DNA of 51,664 nt, taken from a virus (lineage: Duplodnaviria; Caudoviricetes). The stretch lies in IMG/VR virus record IMGVR_UViG_3300001473_000098, positions 1 to 51,664 of that record, one strand, 5' to 3'. This document shows positions 2,185-51,664 of the stretch, in pieces. The position numbers were made by a program, and so were the translations under genes. Every line of letters begins with the position of its first letter. Within the stretch, counting starts at the first letter, position 1. The notes under the pieces were generated by a model. The model was given only the letters and a program-made list of their open reading frames with translations. It was not told where the DNA came from and did no database searches.

Positions 2185-3012
2185 CTATAAAGCGCCGGCG
2201 GCCGTGCGTCCATCCGCTTTCAAAATCCCCCGCCCGATCAACTCCGCGATCTGCGGCACGATCGCGTTGCCGACCGCCTTCAGCCGGTCCAGCCCTTTGG
2301 GTAGCCCATGATCGTTTCGGCCAATTCGACCGTCTGTGTTAGCGACCATCCGATCCACTGAGGGAAAAAGGTAAATCTGATCTGCCCACCTCGCCCGACC
2401 GTTCTGGATATCGAGCGCCGCGGATCGGATTTGCTCACGCGTGACCAGCCGATCGGTTCGCTGGCCAATGGGGTAGGCAACAATCCAGATCCGATCCCGG
2501 CCGTGCGGTAGGCCAATGTTTCCAGCTCCGATGCAATGCCATTCCGCATCATACCCGAGCGCGGCCAGGTCGCCGAGAACCGTGTCCAGTCCTCTAACAA
2601 GCAGCGCTGACACGTTCTCCACGACCACGTAGCGGGGTCGAAGCTCGCCAACAAGACGGGCGATTTCGGACCAGAGCCCGCTTCGCTGACCCTTAAGTCC
2701 GGCACCGTGGCCGGCATACGAGATATCCTGGCAGGGGAATCCCCCGCAAGCAACGTCAATTGGTCCGACATCCCGGCCCCTCAGTTTGACAACGTCATCA
2801 AAGATCGGGACCGCCGGCCAATGCCGGCGCAGGATCGAGCGGGCGAACCCGTCGATCTCGCAGAACGCGGACGTCCTGAAGCCGCCCGTCCGTTCCAGTC
2901 CCAGCGAAAAGCCGCCGATCCCGGAAAACAGATCCAGGACCGACAGTTTGGGACGATCGGGCGGGCGCGCCTTATTTTTTGGGGAAGTGGCCTCGACGCG
3001 CGAATCCGCCAT
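2185..3012 (-). CDS. C5 cytosine DNA methyltransferase, large (alpha) subunit
   Basis: Motifs I DLFSGIGGF, IV GGFPCQDIS, VI ENV, VIII PHGRDRIWIV and X GNAIVP present; motif IX absent. Confidence 0.92.
   Translation of the reverse strand: MADSRVEATSPKNKARPPDRPKLSVLDLFSGIGGFSLGLERTGGFRTSAFCEIDGFARSILRRHWPAVPIFDDVVKLRGRDVGPIDVACGGFPCQDISYAGHGAGLKGQRSGLWSEIARLVGELRPRYVVVENVSALLVRGLDTVLGDLAALGYDAEWHCIGAGNIGLPHGRDRIWIVAYPIGQRTDRLVTREQIRSAALDIQNGRARWADQIYLFPSVDRMVANTDGRIGRNDHGLPKGLDRLKAVGNAIVPQIAELIGRGILKADGRTAAGAL
2280..2771 (-). CDS. Nested alternative-frame small (beta) subunit of the C5 methyltransferase (M.EcoHK31I-like)
   Basis: Own GAGGGG RBS and ATG; WPRSGMMRNG, LLPTPLASE and motif-IX-like ELAETIMGYPKGWT. 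Confidence 0.75.
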   Translation of the reverse strand: MSDQLTLLAGDSPARISRMPATVPDLRVSEAGSGPKSPVLLASFDPATWSWRTCQRCLLEDWTRFSATWPRSGMMRNGIASELETLAYRTAGIGSGLLPTPLASEPIGWSRVSKSDPRRSISRTVGRGGQIRFTFFPQWIGWSLTQTVELAETIMGYPKGWTG

Positions 3013-3339: not shown

Positions 3340-3999
3340 ATGTGCGGACGATTTACCCTTCACTACTCCTGGGCGGAAATGCACGAGGCCTACAATCTGG
3401 TCAGGTCCGAAGACCAGGCCCGCAACGTGCCCGCCCGCTACAACATCGCGCCGACACAGGACGTTCTGACCGTCGCCGACATCGATGGCGAGCGGCGCCT
3501 GTTTGACGCGCGGTGGTGGCTTGTGCCGTTCTGGGCGAAGGAAATCCCGAAATGGACCCTGTTTAATGCCCGCTCCGAAGACGCCGACAAAAAGCCGGCG
3601 TTCCGGGAGGCGTTCAAGTCGAAACGCTGTCTTATTCCGGCCGACGGCTATTTCGAATGGACGAAGAACGAAGACGACGGCAAGAAAGATCCCTGGTACA
3701 TCACCCTGCCCGACGGCGCGCCGTTCGCCTTCGCCGGCTTATGGGCACACAATACGAACCTGGACATTACAAGTTGCACGATTCTGACCGCGGCGGCGGA
3801 TCCGGCGATAGCGCACCTGCACCACCGCATGCCTATCATACTGGATGCCAGACACTATGATGCCTGGATGGATCCGGAAACGGATGCGGCGGACGCGAAG
3901 GCCTTGTTGACCAACAATCGCGGGGCGGAACTGTCCGGCCGACGCGTCGGCCGGGCGGTGAATTCATCGCGATCGAGCGGGGCGGACCTGATCGAATAG
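3340..3999 (+). CDS. SOS response-associated peptidase (SRAP/YedK/HMCES family), abasic-site protection
   Basis: N-terminal MCGRF, RYNIAPTQ, NARSE, GYFEW, HHRMP. Confidence 0.95.
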   Translation: MCGRFTLHYSWAEMHEAYNLVRSEDQARNVPARYNIAPTQDVLTVADIDGERRLFDARWWLVPFWAKEIPKWTLFNARSEDADKKPAFREAFKSKRCLIPADGYFEWTKNEDDGKKDPWYITLPDGAPFAFAGLWAHNTNLDITSCTILTAAADPAIAHLHHRMPIILDARHYDAWMDPETDAADAKALLTNNRGAELSGRRVGRAVNSSRSSGADLIE

Positions 4000-4057
4000 C
4001 GAATTCGGTTTTACAGATTTCGACGCGGATTATGCGGGTGATCATGCAAAGGCGCCC

Positions 4058-4261
4058 TTAGCCGGCACGTTTCCAGCCACACAGCCGCTCACCCTTCAAA
4101 TTATGCTCCACCGCCCGCCGCTTTTCCTCGATCGTCATCGCGGCAATGACGGCCGGTGACAGGATCCGCGGCTGATTGCCGACACAGAAGTCGCCGGGTC
4201 TGGTCGGCGTGGCGCAGCCGGCCAGGATCAGGGCCGCGGCGAGGATCAGTCCCTTGACCAT
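4058..4261 (-). CDS. Outer-membrane spanin-like lipoprotein (Rz1-like)
   Basis: Signal peptide with LAGC lipobox; overlaps the end of the upstream TM gene; end of the lysis cassette. Confidence 0.7.
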   Translation of the reverse strand: MVKGLILAAALILAGCATPTRPGDFCVGNQPRILSPAVIAAMTIEEKRRAVEHNLKGERLCGWKRAG

Positions 4262-4491
4262 TTCATCAGCTCCTTTTCCAGTTCCGCTTCCGACATGACG
4301 GCGACGTCGCGGCGGACATCGTCCTGGACTTCGTAAGTCCGGATCGTCCGCCTCATCGCCTTCGACCGCTCCGCGTTTCGGCCCTGCGACCGGCCGAACA
4401 GCCAGGTCGCACCAAGCGTGAACAGAGCCGCGACACTGGCCATAAGCCCGCCGAATCCGCCGGGGATTGTGGATGCAATCAGATCAAACAT
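4246..4491 (-). CDS. Inner-membrane spanin-like protein (Rz-like)
   Basis: N-terminal TM followed by a charged helical region; directly precedes the lipoprotein. Confidence 0.65.
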   Translation of the reverse strand: MFDLIASTIPGGFGGLMASVAALFTLGATWLFGRSQGRNAERSKAMRRTIRTYEVQDDVRRDVAVMSEAELEKELMKWSRD

Positions 4492-4738
4492 TGTCGTCTC
4501 CATCGAAAAGGTCGGGCGCGATCGCGATGTCGCTGGTCTCGTTGCGCCAGGCCAACCGCGTATTGGTGAAATAGGTCCGCAACACGTAAAGGACGGGCCC
4601 GGACAGATAGACAAGCGTCTGGTTGATCTTGTTGACCACGTCTTCGGGGAACACGCCCCAGACGCCAAGTAGCGATACGATCGCAAAGATCAGGGCATAC
4701 AGGTTGATCTTCGATTTGGCCGGGTTCTTGGTTTGCAT
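4484..4738 (-). CDS. Putative holin
   Basis: 84 aa with two hydrophobic segments, GGAGG RBS, right after the endolysin. Confidence 0.65.
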   Translation of the reverse strand: MQTKNPAKSKINLYALIFAIVSLLGVWGVFPEDVVNKINQTLVYLSGPVLYVLRTYFTNTRLAWRNETSDIAIAPDLFDGDDNV

Positions 4739-4740
4739 GC

Positions 4741-5688
4741 TCAACCTCCAAACCACATTTGCCAACCCGCGCCGGCAGCCGCCACGATGGCCGCGATCAG
4801 GGAATAGAAGCCATTGGCCTGGTCCGCCTTTGGCGCATTGTCATCGACGACAATTGCAACCGGCTTCGGAATCGGTTTCGGCGGCGGATCCTTGGCGAGC
4901 TTTGCCAGCGTGTCGCGCCCGACCAGGCCGTCGACGGTCAAACCGTTCTGCGCCTGGAAGGTTCGAACCGCCGTTTCCGTGCCGGGCCCGAAATCGCCAT
5001 CGATGGCGACGGGGAACCCATGAACGACCAACCGGCGCTGAAGGCCTTCGACCGCCTCGCCTTCCGACCCGCGGCGGAGGACCCTGATGCCGTTCTGGCG
5101 GCTCGACACAGCCGCGCCGGCCTTGACCGCAAGCAGCGTCTTCGCCTTGGCTAGGTAATGCCGCCGATCCGCCAGGCCGTTCCTGCCACCATTGACGCGC
5201 TTCGTGACCATGACGATGTCGTCACGATCGGCGTATCGGTTCAGTTTCCGCGACTGCCAATAATAGACCGCCGACAACAGGGCCCATGGCATGCCCTCGA
5301 GCGCGTCCGGCCGGTCGACAAAATTCGGCGGGTTCAGGTTATTCGACCGGCACCACTTGAAAAACTCTGTGACGTTGGCCCGACCGGTCGTCTGGATCAG
5401 CCCCCTGCCCCGGAAGCGCCGGCCATCGCCCTTTTGCGTGTTACCCAGGTCCCTGCGCCCCTCATAGGCCGCGCCGGATGCATATTCCCGGGTCGTGCAG
5501 AAGCCATCGGCTTCGTGCGCGATCTGGGCAAGGAAATGCGCCTTGCGCAGCGCCGTGTCGATGCGGAACTTGACCGCGGTGTCGTCAATGATCGGCCCAA
5601 GTTCGCGCAGGATTTGTTCCTGCCGGGCGCCCTTTTGTCCGCGCACGCGCGGCGCCAACGCGCGAAGCATTGCGTAATCGATTTTCAT
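4741..5688 (-). CDS. Endolysin: GH19 domain, peptidoglycan-binding domain, C-terminal TM
   Basis: FLAQIAHE, RGRGLIQTTGR, TKRVNGGRNGLADR; DGDFGPGTETAVRTFQ..GLTVDGLVG. Confidence 0.92.
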   Translation of the reverse strand: MKIDYAMLRALAPRVRGQKGARQEQILRELGPIIDDTAVKFRIDTALRKAHFLAQIAHEADGFCTTREYASGAAYEGRRDLGNTQKGDGRRFRGRGLIQTTGRANVTEFFKWCRSNNLNPPNFVDRPDALEGMPWALLSAVYYWQSRKLNRYADRDDIVMVTKRVNGGRNGLADRRHYLAKAKTLLAVKAGAAVSSRQNGIRVLRRGSEGEAVEGLQRRLVVHGFPVAIDGDFGPGTETAVRTFQAQNGLTVDGLVGRDTLAKLAKDPPPKPIPKPVAIVVDDNAPKADQANGFYSLIAAIVAAAGAGWQMWFGG

Positions 5689-5732
5689 AATGGTCTCCGG
5701 TGATTGTCGGCTGGGCCGACGGTTCGTCGCGT

Positions 5733-6113
5733 TCAGTCCGTCACGGGCAGCCGCGCGACACAGCTCATGAAGATCCTGTTTCCGGCCGGGAACATCTGCC
5801 GTTCGCCGATGAAGACATCGAAGGCCGTTCCGTCCACCTTGCGCCCCCGGACCACGCCGTCCTGTGCAAACCGCAAGCGGCCGCCTTCCCGAATCCTCGA
5901 CGTCATGTCGGACCCGTGCGGATGATCAATCCCCCGATCGATCAGCTCCGAAACGTTACGTCCGACCACTTCGCGATAATCGGAATATCCGAACAGCGTG
6001 CAGAAAGCCGGGGCCGCGAACACGATCTGGCTTAAGTGGTCCGTGATGCAAAGCGCTTCCGGCCGCAGCCCCAGATAGGCTGTCGCCGCCAGTGCGCCGT
6101 CAAGATCCATCAT
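5733..6113 (-). CDS. Stand-alone PAS-domain protein (FixL/heme-PAS-like)
   Basis: PAFCTLFGYS..EVVGRNVSEL..H..GRKVDGTAFDV PAS signature; TGATG coupling to the upstream gene. Confidence 0.8.
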   Translation of the reverse strand: MMDLDGALAATAYLGLRPEALCITDHLSQIVFAAPAFCTLFGYSDYREVVGRNVSELIDRGIDHPHGSDMTSRIREGGRLRFAQDGVVRGRKVDGTAFDVFIGERQMFPAGNRIFMSCVARLPVTD

Positions 6114-6385
6114 CACACCTGTTTCGCCTGCATAGCGTTCAAGGCCATGTTTTCCTTGAATTCGCGGTAGGGCGCGATTTCCTCGCGCAATTCGTCGATC
6201 TCGCGCCGCATAGCCCGCAGTTCGGCGCCATAAAGACGCGGCGCGATCCACTTGAAGGCAACGAACGCGCCGGTCAGAAAACCAAGACCGAACAATCCAC
6301 CGGACGGCCCCAAAAACAGCTCCACAAATCTCCCCGCATCCATGCGCGCCGCCTCCTTAGCCCCGATGTCATCGCGAATGGACAT
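6113..6385 (-). CDS. Single-TM, coiled-coil membrane protein (holin/antiholin-like)
   Basis: GLFGLGFLTGAFVAFKW TM then LRAMRREIDELREEI; first gene of the lysis cassette. Confidence 0.65.
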   Translation of the reverse strand: MSIRDDIGAKEAARMDAGRFVELFLGPSGGLFGLGFLTGAFVAFKWIAPRLYGAELRAMRREIDELREEIAPYREFKENMALNAMQAKQV

Positions 6386-6406
6386 TACCGATCGTCCTTT
6401 CCCTGC

Positions 6407-7066
6407 CTAAACCGAAGAAACCGCCCCGCCGAAACCGAGTTCAACCGCTTTAGCCCGCGCCGCATCGATCAGGGTGTCGACCAGCGGATCTACGTCGTCG
6501 ACGGACGAAAGGGCCGCAATCTGCGTTTCGGCGAGATTGCGCAGTCCCTCGATCGCGGCAGACATCTTTGCAAAGTCGGCAGCTTTCTCCCGCACCGAGT
6601 TCGCAAGCGCCGTGACGCCGGCGGCGTCCAGATCCATCGCGGCAACGAGTTCCTTCAAAATCAACGTGTCGGCCACATCGCCGCCGGCGAGAACCGCGCG
6701 CGCTTCCGCCTGCTTGGTCGGCCAGGCCATCGTCTCGGCATCCGGATACTGCTTCACAATCTCTTTTGTGAAACTGTCGACATAATCGACAACGCGCCGA
6801 TAGGCCCTTGCCCGAGCCCGCACCAAGCTGGCATTTTGAAGTGCAGGCATGTCTGACACCAGCGCGTCGATGATCTGCGCCATCGTTTCAGGAAAACGGA
6901 TTTCAAATGAACCATCCGGCAATCTAAACAATCCAACATTCGCGCCATCATATTCCGTTGACTCCAAAGCAATGCGCAAGCCCAGATACGCCGCTTCATC
7001 GAGCGGCCGTGTTTCCGACTGGAACGGCTTGATCATCGGTTTCACCGGCTCTTGTTCATCTGGCAT
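6407..7066 (-). CDS. Tail fibre assembly/chaperone-like protein
   Basis: YPDAETMAWPTKQAEARA motif typical of proteins following tail fibre genes. Confidence 0.6.
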   Translation of the reverse strand: MPDEQEPVKPMIKPFQSETRPLDEAAYLGLRIALESTEYDGANVGLFRLPDGSFEIRFPETMAQIIDALVSDMPALQNASLVRARARAYRRVVDYVDSFTKEIVKQYPDAETMAWPTKQAEARAVLAGGDVADTLILKELVAAMDLDAAGVTALANSVREKAADFAKMSAAIEGLRNLAETQIAALSSVDDVDPLVDTLIDAARAKAVELGFGGAVSSV

Positions 7067-7076
7067 GACGGGCCCT

Positions 7077-7745
7077 CTATGCAACGGATAATTTGGTAAC
7101 TGAAAACCGGCTTGTGAACGCGGTCGGGAAACCTGATCCGCCGCCCGCATCATCTCGGGAAACTCGAATGTAGTAACTTTCTCCGGGAGAGACCGTGCCA
7201 CAAAAAGCGACGCACGCGCCGAGGTTCGCCGAGGTTCCTGACGTCCTGTTGTCCTTTGCCACCCCTTGCGCAACACCGGTTTTCATGATGTGCACGTTAA
7301 TGCCTCTTGCGCCCGCGCCACCGACAAAATCCATGCAAGACATTATCAGCAACAACCCTCCGTCCGAGGGTCCACAGGTCCATAGGACCCCATCAAATGT
7401 GGAGTCGATGAAATTGTTTTCTTCTTCCGTGGCGAAACTCACGTTGGTCGCAACAGCGTCAGGGAACCCCTGCGACCCGTCAACGTAGTAAACCATCCTC
7501 GGCAGGTTCGGTGCTATTGGCGGATCATTCGGCCCGGGTTGACCTAAAAGCTTGAACAATTGGTGCACCTGCGTCAGGTCGTCTGGATCCAAAGTGAATC
7601 CAAATTGTTCCAGAGCGAAGGCGATTTCCTCGATCAGATCGGTAAATGCCCGGTGCGGAACACGGGATCCCTTGGTCCCCGCTGCACGGTCTCCATCTTT
7701 CCAGTCGGCAAAGTTTGCAGAACCAACGGGCGGCGTTCTGTACAT
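7077..7745 (-). CDS. Short tail fibre/receptor-binding protein
   Basis: Conserved N-terminal DGDRAAGTKGSRVP..EI..LDPDDLTQ anchor; beta-rich, more AT-rich C-terminus. Confidence 0.75.
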   Translation of the reverse strand: MYRTPPVGSANFADWKDGDRAAGTKGSRVPHRAFTDLIEEIAFALEQFGFTLDPDDLTQVHQLFKLLGQPGPNDPPIAPNLPRMVYYVDGSQGFPDAVATNVSFATEEENNFIDSTFDGVLWTCGPSDGGLLLIMSCMDFVGGAGARGINVHIMKTGVAQGVAKDNRTSGTSANLGACVAFCGTVSPGESYYIRVSRDDAGGGSGFPTAFTSRFSVTKLSVA

Positions 7746-7746
7746 G

Positions 7747-8499
7747 TCAAGCTCCAATCACTTCGGAATAGTCGAAATAGAGAAGCGACCAGGCCGGCCG
7801 CAGCGGGCGGAATATGCATTCCAGTTCTTCATTGGCCGGCCAGTCGAGCAGGCGCGTGACACCGGCCTCGCCGATCGCCGCCTCGAAATAGTCAGACGGG
7901 CCCGCCGCCAGATGCACGACCCATTCGACCTCGAGATTGACGGTCGCGGTTTCATGGTCGAGCCCGCATTCCGACACGCCGCATTCGAAGGCTTCGGGCT
8001 CCTCGATGCGGATATCGAAACCGAGGCGCGCAGCCAGACACAGATAGTCGCCGGGCGAGATCGTTGCCGGCGACAGCTCCTTGGCCACGACCGCGCGGAG
8101 ACGGGTTTCAAGCGATTGATCCGTCCCGAAACAGGGGTTCGGCAATCCGAAATCGGTCTCCCAACCCTCAAGCGAGTCCGTGATCGTCGAGACGGTCGAT
8201 TCCAACGCCGTTGAAAACATGCGCTGATAAAGCGGTTTCAGCACGCCGGCAAAGCCGCGCCAGAACGTCGTCATCTCGCTGGCCGGATTGTGCACCTCGC
8301 CGTCCGGCGTGCCCCAGGCCGCGCCCTGGGGCAAAAGGGCGACGATCTGGTTCGTCAGGTCGGTTTCGTCCGGATCCGACTCTGCGTCCCGGGTATCGAG
8401 AACAGCGGCTTCCAGATCGTCCGGGCACGGCCATTCGATCAAAATCCCGTCGTCCGGCGGATCAAAGACCGCGCCGCTCACAATGTGCCATGTCGACAT
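7747..8499 (-). CDS. Baseplate protein (Mu gp48/YmfQ/DUF2313-like)
   Basis: LLPQGAAW, WETDFGLPNPC, LECIFRPLRPAW; follows baseplate J. Confidence 0.85.
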   Translation of the reverse strand: MSTWHIVSGAVFDPPDDGILIEWPCPDDLEAAVLDTRDAESDPDETDLTNQIVALLPQGAAWGTPDGEVHNPASEMTTFWRGFAGVLKPLYQRMFSTALESTVSTITDSLEGWETDFGLPNPCFGTDQSLETRLRAVVAKELSPATISPGDYLCLAARLGFDIRIEEPEAFECGVSECGLDHETATVNLEVEWVVHLAAGPSDYFEAAIGEAGVTRLLDWPANEELECIFRPLRPAWSLLYFDYSEVIGA

Positions 8500-42059: not shown

Positions 42060-42162
42060 CAAAAATGTACATTTTGGGCGTTTCGTCAACCCATTTTTTG
42101 GGGTCGCCCGTTCCAATCCGATATGGGTGGCGACATCAGGAAGCAAAAAATGCACTATCTGG
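42060..42162. promoter_or_regulatory. OR-like operator and divergent promoter region
   Basis: Palindrome AAAATGTACATTTT at 42062-42075, related AAAATGCACTATCTGG at 42147-42162, TTGACG on minus at 42084-42089. Confidence 0.6.
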
Positions 42163-42164
42163 AC

Positions 42165-42632
42165 ATGAAAGAAACAGACAATAAGGCGACCCACCGGTTG
42201 CGCGAACTCCGGGAATCCCGCGGCTTTTCACAAGAAAAGGCGGGCGAGTTATTCGGCATGTCCACAAGCGGCTATCAAAAAATCGAACAGGGCAGCCGCG
42301 GCCTGAAGGCGAATGTGATCGCTAAAGCCTGCGAGATCTACGGTGTGGATGAAGGCGCCGTGCTCGGCAGCAGCAACCCGAGGCTGTACTCGGTTGTGTC
42401 GAATCCAACTAAAAATTTTGCGTTGCAATTAAATCGCGAACTGCTAACGTCCATAATTGTAAAGGTCGACGAGGTTAGGAAGTTGAGAAAAGTCGCCCTA
42501 GGCGGCAAAGAACCGGAACAATATGCGGAATTTGTTGCTGATCTTTACGAACTCGCAATGAGTAAAGGCGGCGATTTTGAGACGATTTCCTACTTCTTTG
42601 ACTTGGCGTCGTATGAGGAAGACAAAAAATAA
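42165..42632 (+). CDS. CI-like XRE repressor without S24 peptidase domain
   Basis: RLRELRESRGFSQEKAGELFGMSTSGYQKIEQG; short helical C-terminal domain. Confidence 0.85.
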   Translation: MKETDNKATHRLRELRESRGFSQEKAGELFGMSTSGYQKIEQGSRGLKANVIAKACEIYGVDEGAVLGSSNPRLYSVVSNPTKNFALQLNRELLTSIIVKVDEVRKLRKVALGGKEPEQYAEFVADLYELAMSKGGDFETISYFFDLASYEEDKK

Positions 42633-48320: not shown

Positions 48321-49454
48321 ATGAAATTCAAAGCCAACGCCAAGGCCCTGGCCGCCACCCTCGCCGCGATCATGCCGACGGTCGAACGTCGCAACACGAT
48401 CCCGATCCTGAACAATATCGCACTCACCGTCGACGGCGGCGAGGTGACGATCGAGGCGACAAACCTGGACATGTGGACGTCGATCGCGATGGAAGCCGAT
48501 TGCGAAAGCGACGGCCAGGTCACCGTCCCCGGCCAGATCTTCTATTCCATGGTCCGCAATCTGAACGCGGCCGACGGCGACAGCCTGACATTCGAAGTCA
48601 TGGACGACCAGAACGCCCGGGTTCAGTTCAAAAAATCAAGGTACAAGATCGCGACCCTGCCGTTCAGAGATTTCCCGCGTCCGGGCCCGATCGACTATCC
48701 GACATCGTTCATCCTGACGGCCGAAGACGCGGCGACGCTGTTCAAATCCTGCGCGATCGCCATGTCGAACGAGGAAACCCGCTACTATCTGAACGGCATC
48801 TATCTCTGCGCCCAGCCGATCAAGAACCTGGCCGACGGACGGGACAGGCTGGCCGCGGTCGCGACCAACGGCCATCAGCTCGCCGCCGCCGGCGTCGATC
48901 TTCCCGACGGCGCCGCCGGCATGGAGGGCGTGATCGTGCCGCGCGCCGCGGTCGGGATCATCGTCGGCCTGCTGAACGGGGATGCGGAAACCATCCCGAT
49001 CCGGGTCTGCAATCAGCGGATCGAATTCGAAATCGGCCGCGTAACACTGACGTCAAAACTGGTCGACGGAACCTATCCGGACTTTGAACGGGTCATGCCG
49101 GCAAAGGGCACCGCCCCCGTCATCCTGGACACCGACCAAATCCGAACGACTTCGAAAAGCCTTGCCGGGTTCATCAACGGCACCGCGGCAATCGCCATCG
49201 ATATCGAGGGCGACCAGGCACGGTTTTCAGGCCGGGATAACAACACCGGCAACGAAGCCGAAGACACTGTCCGCGTCGACTATCAGGGCGACCCGATCCG
49301 CATCGGGTTCAACGTCAAATATGTCGCCGAATATTTCGGCGCGATCGGCACCGACACCACCGACATGCATCTGTCCGGCGACCAGTCGCCGGCCCTGTTC
49401 ATCCCGCACGGGCGCGACGATGTGCAGTTCGTGCTTATGCCGATGCGGGTTTGA
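48321..49454 (+). CDS. dnaN: DNA polymerase III beta sliding clamp
   Basis: VERRNTIPILNN, EETRYYLNGI, ATNGHQL, KLVDGTYPDFERV, VLMPMRV. Confidence 0.95.
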   Translation: MKFKANAKALAATLAAIMPTVERRNTIPILNNIALTVDGGEVTIEATNLDMWTSIAMEADCESDGQVTVPGQIFYSMVRNLNAADGDSLTFEVMDDQNARVQFKKSRYKIATLPFRDFPRPGPIDYPTSFILTAEDAATLFKSCAIAMSNEETRYYLNGIYLCAQPIKNLADGRDRLAAVATNGHQLAAAGVDLPDGAAGMEGVIVPRAAVGIIVGLLNGDAETIPIRVCNQRIEFEIGRVTLTSKLVDGTYPDFERVMPAKGTAPVILDTDQIRTTSKSLAGFINGTAAIAIDIEGDQARFSGRDNNTGNEAEDTVRVDYQGDPIRIGFNVKYVAEYFGAIGTDTTDMHLSGDQSPALFIPHGRDDVQFVLMPMRV

Positions 49455-50338: not shown

Positions 50339-51664
50339 TCACGTCAGAAGCCCATCCGGATATTCCAACGCAAGTTTCCTGATCTCACCCTGCCGGAACT
50401 TCAAGGATCCGCCGTCGCCATAGTCCGGCCGGCCGATCGAATGGCCCATCAACCGCATCCGCAATTCCGAATCGATCCCCGCTTCCATCGCCCGCGTTTC
50501 AAAGGCATGTCGGAATGAATAAATCACGTGTTTGTCCGTCGGAAACAGCCCGTTCGCCCGGAAGAACTTCATGGCGGTCGCCGAAAAGCCGTTTTCCTTG
50601 TCTCCATACCGATGCGAAAACCCGTCCGGCCAGCGCCGGAACGCGGCAAGCGAAACGCCGACCAGGGGAATGTCGCGATTGCTCGGGTCCGATTTCACCT
50701 CGCGCCCCATGCGCTGCGTGATCACGATGTGCGGCACGTCGGCGTCAAGGACAATGCATTCCGGCGGAAGGTTGCAGATCTCTGACGGCCTGCACCCCGT
50801 TTCGATCAGGGCAAAAATGATCCCGCGGGCGGCTTCGTTCAGGCCGTCAAGTGCGCCGGGCTTCAGGATTTCATCACGGATCCAGGACGATTCGAATGGC
50901 GGCGGTTTCTCCGACTGCCCGCCCTTGTACGAAAGGTCGCGGAACGGGTTCGGCCGGTCCGCCTGGCCGACATGCCGAAAATACTCACGATAGAGCGTCC
51001 GCATGTTGCCCATGTCACGCTTTGCCGAATTCTGACTGCGCGACCCGTCCAGGACCCGGTTCAGCCAAAACTGATAGAATTTAAGGGCGTTCTCCCGCGT
51101 GATGTCCTGCAGGGGGACGTCGCCGACCACGCGCTTGAAATTGTTGATCGCGCGCAGTTTGACCTTGCGCCAGCTCGCCTTCTGCCCGTTCGATTTGGTT
51201 TGCAGCTCCGCCGCCTTGATCACCTTTTCATAGGTGTCGAACGCGTCATCGAGGGGCGTTTTTGGTTCCGGCACCAAGCCCAGAACCGCATCGACGTCCA
51301 GCCCGGAAGACGTTGATTCGTCGATCAGGGCGGCACGCGCCATGATCAGATCGACAGACGACCGGGCGATTTCATCCGCCGGGAGGTAGGCCAGATTCAG
51401 GGACATGGCGCGCACGGCCGCGGCCTCGTAAAGCTTGCGCGCGGCGTCATTCGGCCCGGCGATCAGCGCCGACCAATACTCATCATGCGCCTTTTCTAGG
51501 ATATCCCGCCGCGCCCGGGCGACCGCGGCATCATGTGTGTTGAGAGATTTCTTGACCCAGACGGCGCCGAAGGTCTCGCGAACGTTTTTCGGCACACGGC
51601 GAACATACCGATAGCCGCCCCTTGTCCGTTTTTCGAGGTAACGATCTTCCTGTTCCGAACCCAA
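50339..51664 (-). CDS. int: Tyrosine integrase with N-terminal DUF6538-like arm-binding domain
   Basis: YVRRVP..KSLNT; TGCRPSEI, VKS, YSFRH, LMGH, DYG; TTG start at the window edge. Confidence 0.92.
   Translation of the reverse strand: MGSEQEDRYLEKRTRGGYRYVRRVPKNVRETFGAVWVKKSLNTHDAAVARARRDILEKAHDEYWSALIAGPNDAARKLYEAAAVRAMSLNLAYLPADEIARSSVDLIMARAALIDESTSSGLDVDAVLGLVPEPKTPLDDAFDTYEKVIKAAELQTKSNGQKASWRKVKLRAINNFKRVVGDVPLQDITRENALKFYQFWLNRVLDGSRSQNSAKRDMGNMRTLYREYFRHVGQADRPNPFRDLSYKGGQSEKPPPFESSWIRDEILKPGALDGLNEAARGIIFALIETGCRPSEICNLPPECIVLDADVPHIVITQRMGREVKSDPSNRDIPLVGVSLAAFRRWPDGFSHRYGDKENGFSATAMKFFRANGLFPTDKHVIYSFRHAFETRAMEAGIDSELRMRLMGHSIGRPDYGDGGSLKFRQGEIRKLALEYPDGLLT

Follow-up and report, generated by a model that had tools for sequence, protein, structure and literature searches.

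A stand-alone FixL/DosP-type PAS protein translationally coupled to a membrane protein gene and located upstream of the endolysin gene of a temperate phage

Introduction

Phages time the killing of their hosts by sensing DNA damage, peptides and quorum signals, and RIII has a role in T4 lysis inhibition. A studied phage PAS sensor is VqmA of vibriophage VP882, as described in the available part of its source (PMC8284805). FixL and DosP were placed in one cluster (cluster 3), which is defined by a His on the F-alpha helix, and haem binding usually requires that His alone, according to the accessible text of Xing et al. (bioRxiv 10.1101/2023.04.23.537977). His194 and His200 are the proximal haem ligands of FixL and are located on the F-alpha helix (PMC10765370, available part). 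The distal sides of haem-PAS domains differ, with FixL being five-coordinate, DosP His/Met-coordinated and FG214 bis-His-coordinated, as far as the available text of 10.64898/2026.03.15.711900 covers them. In the literature search, no paper was found that ties a PAS protein to a holin, an endolysin or lysis timing, and no stand-alone or single-domain haem-PAS gene of such kind was found; the supplements of Xing et al. (Table S1 and Fig. S6) may hold cluster assignments. Here, a small PAS protein encoded between a membrane protein gene and the endolysin gene of a provirus is compared with these systems.

Results

Gene organization

The whole stretch of DNA analysed (51,664 bases, hereafter referred to as the window) is a provirus record with an integrase-like gene at 50339-51664. 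A single long run of minus-strand genes encodes primase, helicase, methyltransferases, terminase, portal, protease, capsid, tail sheath, baseplate proteins (phrog_6 and phrog_203) and a fibre-like protein, and the phage is temperate and contractile-tailed. The features from the fibre-like gene to the spanins are listed in Table 1. In the sequence, 21 nt precede the 90-aa gene, while the endolysin gene is preceded by 44 nt and followed by 2 nt. No minus-strand promoter-like site was found in 3900-7900, and neither a terminator nor a promoter was called in the 44-nt spacer. The inverted repeat in this spacer consists of a 6-bp stem and a 3-nt loop (GTCGGC TGG GCCGAC on the plus strand) without a T-run, and may be due to chance. 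Rfam gave 0 matches at the gathering score for the whole window, and the repeats in 3900-7500 were just short two-copy matches.

Table 1. Coordinates of the PAS gene, the membrane protein gene and their neighbours in the window.
Feature	Position	Strand	Remarks
Fibre-like gene	7077-7757	-	Start of the block running to the spanins
219-aa phage protein, no assigned function	6407-7066	-	phrog_2618, E 7e-8; last tail-region gene, upstream boundary of the pair
90-aa single-pass membrane protein	6113-6385	-	No family match; TGA stop overlapping or adjoining the start of the PAS gene
Stand-alone PAS protein, 125 aa (126 aa if ATG at 6113)	5733-6110 (or 6113)	-	N-terminal helix 3-15, PAS core ~17-120, Pro64-His65
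44-nt spacer, PAS stop to endolysin start	5689-5732	-	GGAG 5-8 nt before the endolysin ATG; inverted repeat at 5706-5720
Endolysin, GH19/chitinase-like catalytic part and PG_binding_1	4741-5688	-	phrog_9506, 1.1e-55; PG_binding_1, 5.1e-17
84-aa membrane protein, holin position	4484-4738	-	2 nt past the endolysin stop; no family match
Inner-membrane spanin, 82 aa	4246-4494	-	phrog_1026, Rz-like spanin, E 1.9e-9
Outer-membrane lipoprotein spanin, 67 aa	4058-4261	-	phrog_1275, Rz-like spanin, E 4.9e-10; hydrophobic N-terminus then Cys; overlaps the 3' end of the i-spanin gene

At the junction of the two upstream genes, the minus strand reads ...CAG GTG TGA TG ATG GAT, with the stop codon at 6115-6113, a first ATG at 6113-6111 and a second ATG at 6110. 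The first ATG shares its A with the upstream stop (TGATG) and yields 126 aa, and the second one yields 125 aa; the genes abut in both cases, and the TGATG junction reported in the initial annotation was confirmed. The open frame extends over 5733-6251 on the minus strand. The 125-aa start at the Met of MDLDG (the ATG at 6110) is supported by the homologues and was favoured because the relatives begin at the same Met; the 172-aa form with a GTG start was ruled out on the same ground. The GC contents at the three codon positions (0.64/0.47/0.75 for the PAS gene and 0.62/0.43/0.71 for the membrane protein gene) were like those of the neighbouring genes, and the plus-strand ORFs across the region resemble shadows, which the codon-position GC does not fit. 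The gene pair is real.

Several other genes were recorded in the window. A plus-strand SRAP (SOS-response-associated peptidase) gene (3340-3999, E 2.7e-64) lies just beyond the spanins, and a C5 cytosine DNA methyltransferase gene was found at 2185-3012 on the minus strand (phrog_363, 4.1e-74), with another DNA_methylase match elsewhere in the window. Near the integrase end of the provirus, a gene (48321-49454, plus strand) encodes a DNA polymerase III beta protein (sliding clamp) with all three domains. The Atlas leads for the 219-aa protein were viral clusters (0.93), in which 46% of the members had HI1402_helical. One of the 128 window ORFs matched the GapR-like DNA-binding domain (PF10073, E 3e-37); GapR is presumably an alphaproteobacterial nucleoid protein, and this ORF would then fit an alphaproteobacterial host. 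The best phage matches, from Rhizobium and Ochrobactrum phages, also fit such a host. The stretch is present in two DNA sequencing runs of a single study that carry the label marine metagenome, and one of the two may be its source; no RNA run was listed.

PAS domain and its fold

In Pfam, the protein matched PAS_9 over residues 17-113 (E 4.8e-8, 33.7 bits against a cut-off of 27), PAS (24.1 against 22.6 bits) and PAS_8 (23.2 against 21.8 bits), and TIGR00229 was matched at E 1.1e-7 (32 against 22.9 bits). Only PAS families were found. The description in the initial annotation of a PAS-only protein of about 126 aa upstream of the endolysin, with no output domain, thus held: the protein has 125 or 126 aa, ends 44 nt before the endolysin gene and carries no second domain by Pfam. 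No PHROG family was matched, and the NCBIfam equivalog for sensor FixL (NF041777) scored 30.6 bits against a cut-off of 850, over profile positions 132-234 of 485.

When the protein was searched against all PDB sequences, the best match was the haem domain of S. meliloti FixL (1d06, E 6.3e-6, query residues 15-118), followed by B. japonicum FixL and the haem domain of E. coli DosP. The alignment with 1d06 was without gaps over residues 46-118, and rGrkvdGtaf of the phage protein paired with tGkrrdGttf of FixL; both the gap-free alignment and the GRKVDGTAF pairing had been proposed in the initial annotation. The profile of the family described below gave a FixL match at 5e-10, and then DosP (E 1.4e-7) and other FixL chains.

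An AlphaFold2 model was built on a 7-sequence alignment (pLDDT 85, pTM 0.80), with strands at residues 19-24, 28-32, 85-90, 96-109 and 112-120 and with the F-alpha/FG region as its weakest part (block means 76 and 59). Foldseek searching of the PDB with this model gave 351 matches at E <= 0.001, the top ones being PAS domains. The first ten were all FixL or EcDOS haem domains (EcDOS TM 0.73), with LOV and other PAS domains close behind.

Family members and relatives

A HMMER search over 1.84 billion representatives gave 694 proteins at E <= 0.001. The best 150 of the 694 were nearly all large multi-PAS sensors, with six short proteins apart from these, and a profile search limited to short proteins added one further member. 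The resulting 8 clusters (50% identity or less) came from Logan, JGI/IMG and ENA metagenome assemblies only, and every member had 125-171 aa and was 29-68% identical to the PAS protein (P0001). Against the family profile, the members scored 154-190 bits and any other PAS domain among the stored hits scored at most 44 bits. As the search at all lengths gave no fused form of the family, the members are regarded as stand-alone proteins. Residues F40, G50, P64, H65, G85, V87, V99, R104 and C117 were invariant. Judged by sequence, the family is real and new, and comprises a small set of single-domain PAS proteins of the FixL/DosP type that are carried by phages.

The only close relative of the PAS protein (cluster member P0152, 69% identical) is located on a contig of 53,235 bases. 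The single relative of the 90-aa protein is 67% identical and its longest contig likewise has 53,235 bases; the two relatives probably share one contig. No relative was found in the viral contigs searched with P0001, P0002, P0030, P0025, the endolysin and the 90-aa alignment, in the genome contigs searched with P0001, or in 50,697 phage records searched by tblastn with the PAS, 90-aa and 219-aa proteins. Nine loci from the alignment search (6 metagenome contigs and 3 genome contigs) were rejected as family members, since their PAS domains lie inside sensors of 427-1206 aa and reach no more than 48 bits with the family profile.

For the comparison with the nearest non-family PAS domains, the 556 domain matches among the stored proteins were reduced by 20 family proteins and 42 partial matches to 494 domains from 132 proteins. 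His was present in the proximal column of 441 of the 494, the distal Arg in 359 and both residues in 357, and the family is therefore considered to branch from the haem-type PAS group. Some of these relatives are giants, 3,000-5,490 aa long, in which as many as 11 stretches matched PAS; with the FixL-type His and Arg in most of the retained domains, they resemble long arrays of putative haem-PAS units.

Haem pocket

His65, the second His of IDHPH, was aligned to the His of YRHEH in S. meliloti FixL (chain position 73, His194), to that of DRSRH in B. japonicum FixL (His200) and to that of RPAHPE in DosP, in agreement with the proximal-ligand position given to it in the initial annotation. Its conservation among homologues had been set as a check beforehand, and Pro64-His65 was invariant in all 8 clusters. 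The column of the distal Arg (Arg214 in S. meliloti FixL, Arg220 in B. japonicum FixL and Arg97 in DosP) was Gly85 in 8/8 clusters, which bears out the suspicion that this Arg is not kept. The distal residues of DosP, which we take to be Met95 and Arg97, had no counterpart in the phage protein in the printed alignment. Distal Ile209, Ile210, Leu230 and Val232 of S. meliloti FixL were replaced by Arg80, Phe81, Ile101 and Glu103 in P0001, respectively, two of the four being hydrophobic. Among the 441 His-bearing FixL-type domains, 34 columns were at least 60% conserved, of which P0001 kept 16 and differed at 18; the changed columns that surround the haem were those of Asp66, Tyr68, Tyr72, Arg85, Asn52 and Pro58. 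The FixL-type Asp at His+1 was lost, the Tyr at His+3 was replaced by Asp, Glu or Asn in all 8 clusters, and the Tyr at His+7 was kept in one.

Because of this divergence from FixL (distal Arg to Gly, 16 of 34 columns kept), haem binding by the PAS protein is judged, from sequence, to be evenly balanced. Should the protein bind haem, O2 sensing in the manner of FixL would be unlikely, and CO, NO, the redox state or haem itself would be as likely as signals.

It is somewhat unlikely that the domain has lost haem and that a metal ion or some other small ligand is bound by the invariant His in concert with His63, the acidic +3 residue and possibly Cys117, or that the protein is a pure protein-binding module. 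Such a loss would agree with the 18 changed FixL-type columns, haem-surrounding ones included, with the presence of His63 in 7 of the 8 clusters and of Asp or Glu at +3 in 6, and with the family-specific invariant pattern H-P-H..[DE]M plus Arg104 and Cys117. Within the FixL/DosP cluster, some proteins are also described, in the accessible text of Xing et al. (10.1101/2023.04.23.537977), as having another conservation pattern and another cofactor. Against the loss, three independent alignments (with the single sequence, with the family profile, and of the profile with DosP) put the His exactly in the column of the proximal ligand. Cys117 would be directed away from the pocket by the strand register with FixL and the pocket-facing Iβ residues, as we presume these to be; Cys117 as a haem ligand was likewise judged unlikely from this register. 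Haem-PAS domains can function with quite different distal sides, as the examples of FG214 and DosP make clear (10.64898/2026.03.15.711900, available text).

Membrane protein and lysis genes

The 90-aa protein has a conserved 19-residue N-terminus, one Gly-rich hydrophobic segment (~20-48) and a charged, helical-looking C-terminal half. The hydrophobic stretch reached a 19-residue Kyte-Doolittle mean of 1.56 at residues 30-48, in line with the transmembrane segment of the initial annotation, and the charges flanking it do not decide the topology. In Pfam only LapA_dom was matched, at 18.1 bits and thus under its cut-off of 28, and PHROG and NCBIfam gave no family, thus no holin or antiholin family match. 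The earlier label of a holin/antiholin-like protein is thus not backed by membership of a known holin or antiholin family. The protein is small, with one hydrophobic segment; its gene is parted from the endolysin gene by the PAS gene, and the usual holin position is taken by another membrane protein. The best score of the Atlas search was 0.88, which is a lead only, and a detectable relative was present in only one other cluster. No similarity to the i-spanin was found. Complex prediction for the PAS and 90-aa proteins gave 'no answer' (score 0.02, mark 0.32), which is neutral. That the two proteins act as partners is possible, with the balance leaning against it.

The endolysin and two spanins form one block (phrog_9506, phrog_1026 and phrog_1275), and the endolysin of Ochrobactrum phage POA1180 is 49% identical to that of the window. 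In POA1180 and in Rhizobium phages PPF1 and RR1-A, the endolysin gene is followed by a gene for a small protein and then by the spanin gene(s). The 84-aa protein and the i-spanin had no similarity to their positional counterparts in POA1180. As the 84-aa protein fills the holin position, the cassette is complete without the PAS/90-aa pair. The PAS protein had been placed inside the lysis cassette; its gene is next to the endolysin gene, but 'inside' is too strong, since the cassette of the nearest cultured phages begins at the endolysin. The C-terminal end of the endolysin (window 4741-4810, residues ~294-315) is Gly/Ala-rich and hydrophobic (best 19-residue Kyte-Doolittle mean 1.35 at residue 297), lies outside the stretch matched by the POA1180 endolysin (query residues 3-260) and may be a membrane tether.

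Other PAS proteins in the window

A second PAS protein in the immunity region had been claimed, with the proposal that the phage senses its environment at both decision points. By phmmer and two HMMs on all stop-to-stop frames of at least 50 aa in the window, only the known PAS protein was found below E 0.6, and Pfam gave no PAS domain among the 20 ORFs between 38.4 and 47.3 kb. Among the 25 of 57 Pfam families listed for the 128 ORFs, only DNA_methylase was present in more than one ORF, a PAS domain of another family being possible. The second protein was thus not found, and the idea of two sensors gained no support beyond position. Regulator-type matches in the presumed immunity region were limited to one repressor-like HTH_31/HTH_3 protein (42123-42632, plus strand, E 6.5e-14), and no PAS protein was found near it.

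Discussion

The best explanation as a whole, which we hold tentatively and at somewhat less than even likelihood, is a module of a FixL/DosP-type sensor and a membrane partner that acts at a late membrane-linked step. The PAS protein would be a single-domain sensor of the FixL/DosP type, with haem b most likely on His65 of the F-alpha helix and with a distal side of the pocket that is unlike FixL's in having no Arg. Since it has no output domain, it would have to work through binding another protein. Its synthesis would be confined to the period of late gene expression and tied by translational coupling to that of the 90-aa membrane protein. The two genes would be an accessory module located in a variable slot, with the tail genes on one side and the endolysin/holin/spanin cassette on the other. 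As the most likely target we regard a late membrane-linked step, at which the state of the haem (gas, redox or haem supply) may alter the binding of the PAS protein to the membrane protein, and altered binding could shift the time of holin firing.

The synthesis of the pair with the late genes, the coupled translation and the end of the pair 44 nt ahead of the endolysin gene favour a lysis link, as does the probable presence of the only close relatives of both proteins on one contig. This link is one of position and translational coupling only, and control of lysis timing is a hypothesis. An effect of the pair on lysis timing is considered quite improbable, and the full proposal, that a phage haem sensor of oxygen, redox or another gas advances or delays holin firing via its co-translated partner, highly improbable.

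Alternatively, and rather unlikely in our judgement, the genes would be cargo unrelated to lysis, an accessory pair that acts on host signalling or, with the membrane protein, in exclusion or defence; the PAS protein might, for example, be a decoy that pairs with PAS domains of host FixL-type kinases or c-di-GMP enzymes. The variable slot speaks for cargo. By baseplate protein, the nearest cultured phages are PPF1 and RR1-A (42-48% identity, same overall order), in which the slot between the fibre and the endolysin holds unrelated genes, e.g. those for esterases or hydrolases or unrelated small genes; no homologue of the PAS or 90-aa protein was found in either phage, and what they share with the window is limited to the baseplate wedge protein and the N-terminus of the fibre. 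That the endolysin, the 84-aa membrane protein and the two spanins make a complete lysis cassette by themselves points the same way, and so do the large multi-PAS sensors to which the nearest non-family relatives belong. In BFVD, 12 viral PAS-fold matches were obtained at E <= 0.001 (8-18% identity), including small 'PAS domain' proteins (165-205 aa) of uncultured tailed phages and phage histidine kinases, which show that phages carry PAS in other settings. On the other hand, the pair has no promoter-like site of its own and is tightly spaced to late genes on both sides; it would therefore be made only late, a poor fit to a role in lysogenic conversion. The identity of the PAS protein to any host-type PAS domain was at most 31% among the matches listed, and the gene is therefore not a recent capture. 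PADLOC gave nothing meaningful for the four proteins tested (best E 0.003, for the 219-aa protein), which speaks against defence.

If the preferred explanation of a sensor with a membrane partner is true, a cofactor-based gas or redox sensor in a late operon would be a new kind of input, at the lysis step and not at the lysogeny switch. We know of no described case of lysis control by a cofactor-sensed environmental cue. Without the lysis link, the family would still be a branch of the FixL/DosP haem-PAS group that is compact (125 aa), has no output domain and carries a rebuilt distal side. It would offer a simple model of how PAS domains signal through protein contacts, and might be of use in engineering as a small sensor part.

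Compared with known systems, the phage protein is matched best in both sequence and fold by the FixL haem-PAS domains (S. meliloti 1d06/1ew0; B. japonicum 1dp6, 1xj4 and others). Like FixL, it keeps the proximal His column and the scaffold motifs FGY, G50, DG..F and V87, with a gap-free F-alpha alignment; unlike FixL, it has no kinase or output domain, has Gly in place of the distal Arg in 8/8 clusters, has lost the Tyr at His+3 and His+7, and is phage-borne. E. coli DosP (EcDOS) is the second-best group by profile, with its RPAHPE His aligned to His65 and a similar fold (TM 0.73), but carries GGDEF/EAL output domains, of which the phage protein has none. Short LOV proteins (3sw1, 7yx0, 5luv and 7a6p among the fold matches) and photoactive yellow protein share the PAS core, the N-terminal cap helix and the lack of an effector domain; they bind flavin or p-coumaric acid, respectively, and are cellular, not encoded in a phage late operon.

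VqmA of VP882 is, like the phage protein, a phage-encoded PAS sensor, and it feeds its signal into the timing of host killing; unlike the phage protein, it contains an output domain that binds DNA, has the autoinducer DPO as its ligand and works at the switch from lysogeny to lysis, not in a late operon (PMC8284805, available part). The T4 antiholins RI (PMC11413866) and RIII are small, one being membrane-tethered and the other cytoplasmic, and set the time of lysis by binding the holin. They serve as the working model for the pair, with no sequence or family match to the 90-aa or PAS protein, and the signal in T4 is superinfection, not the state of a cofactor.
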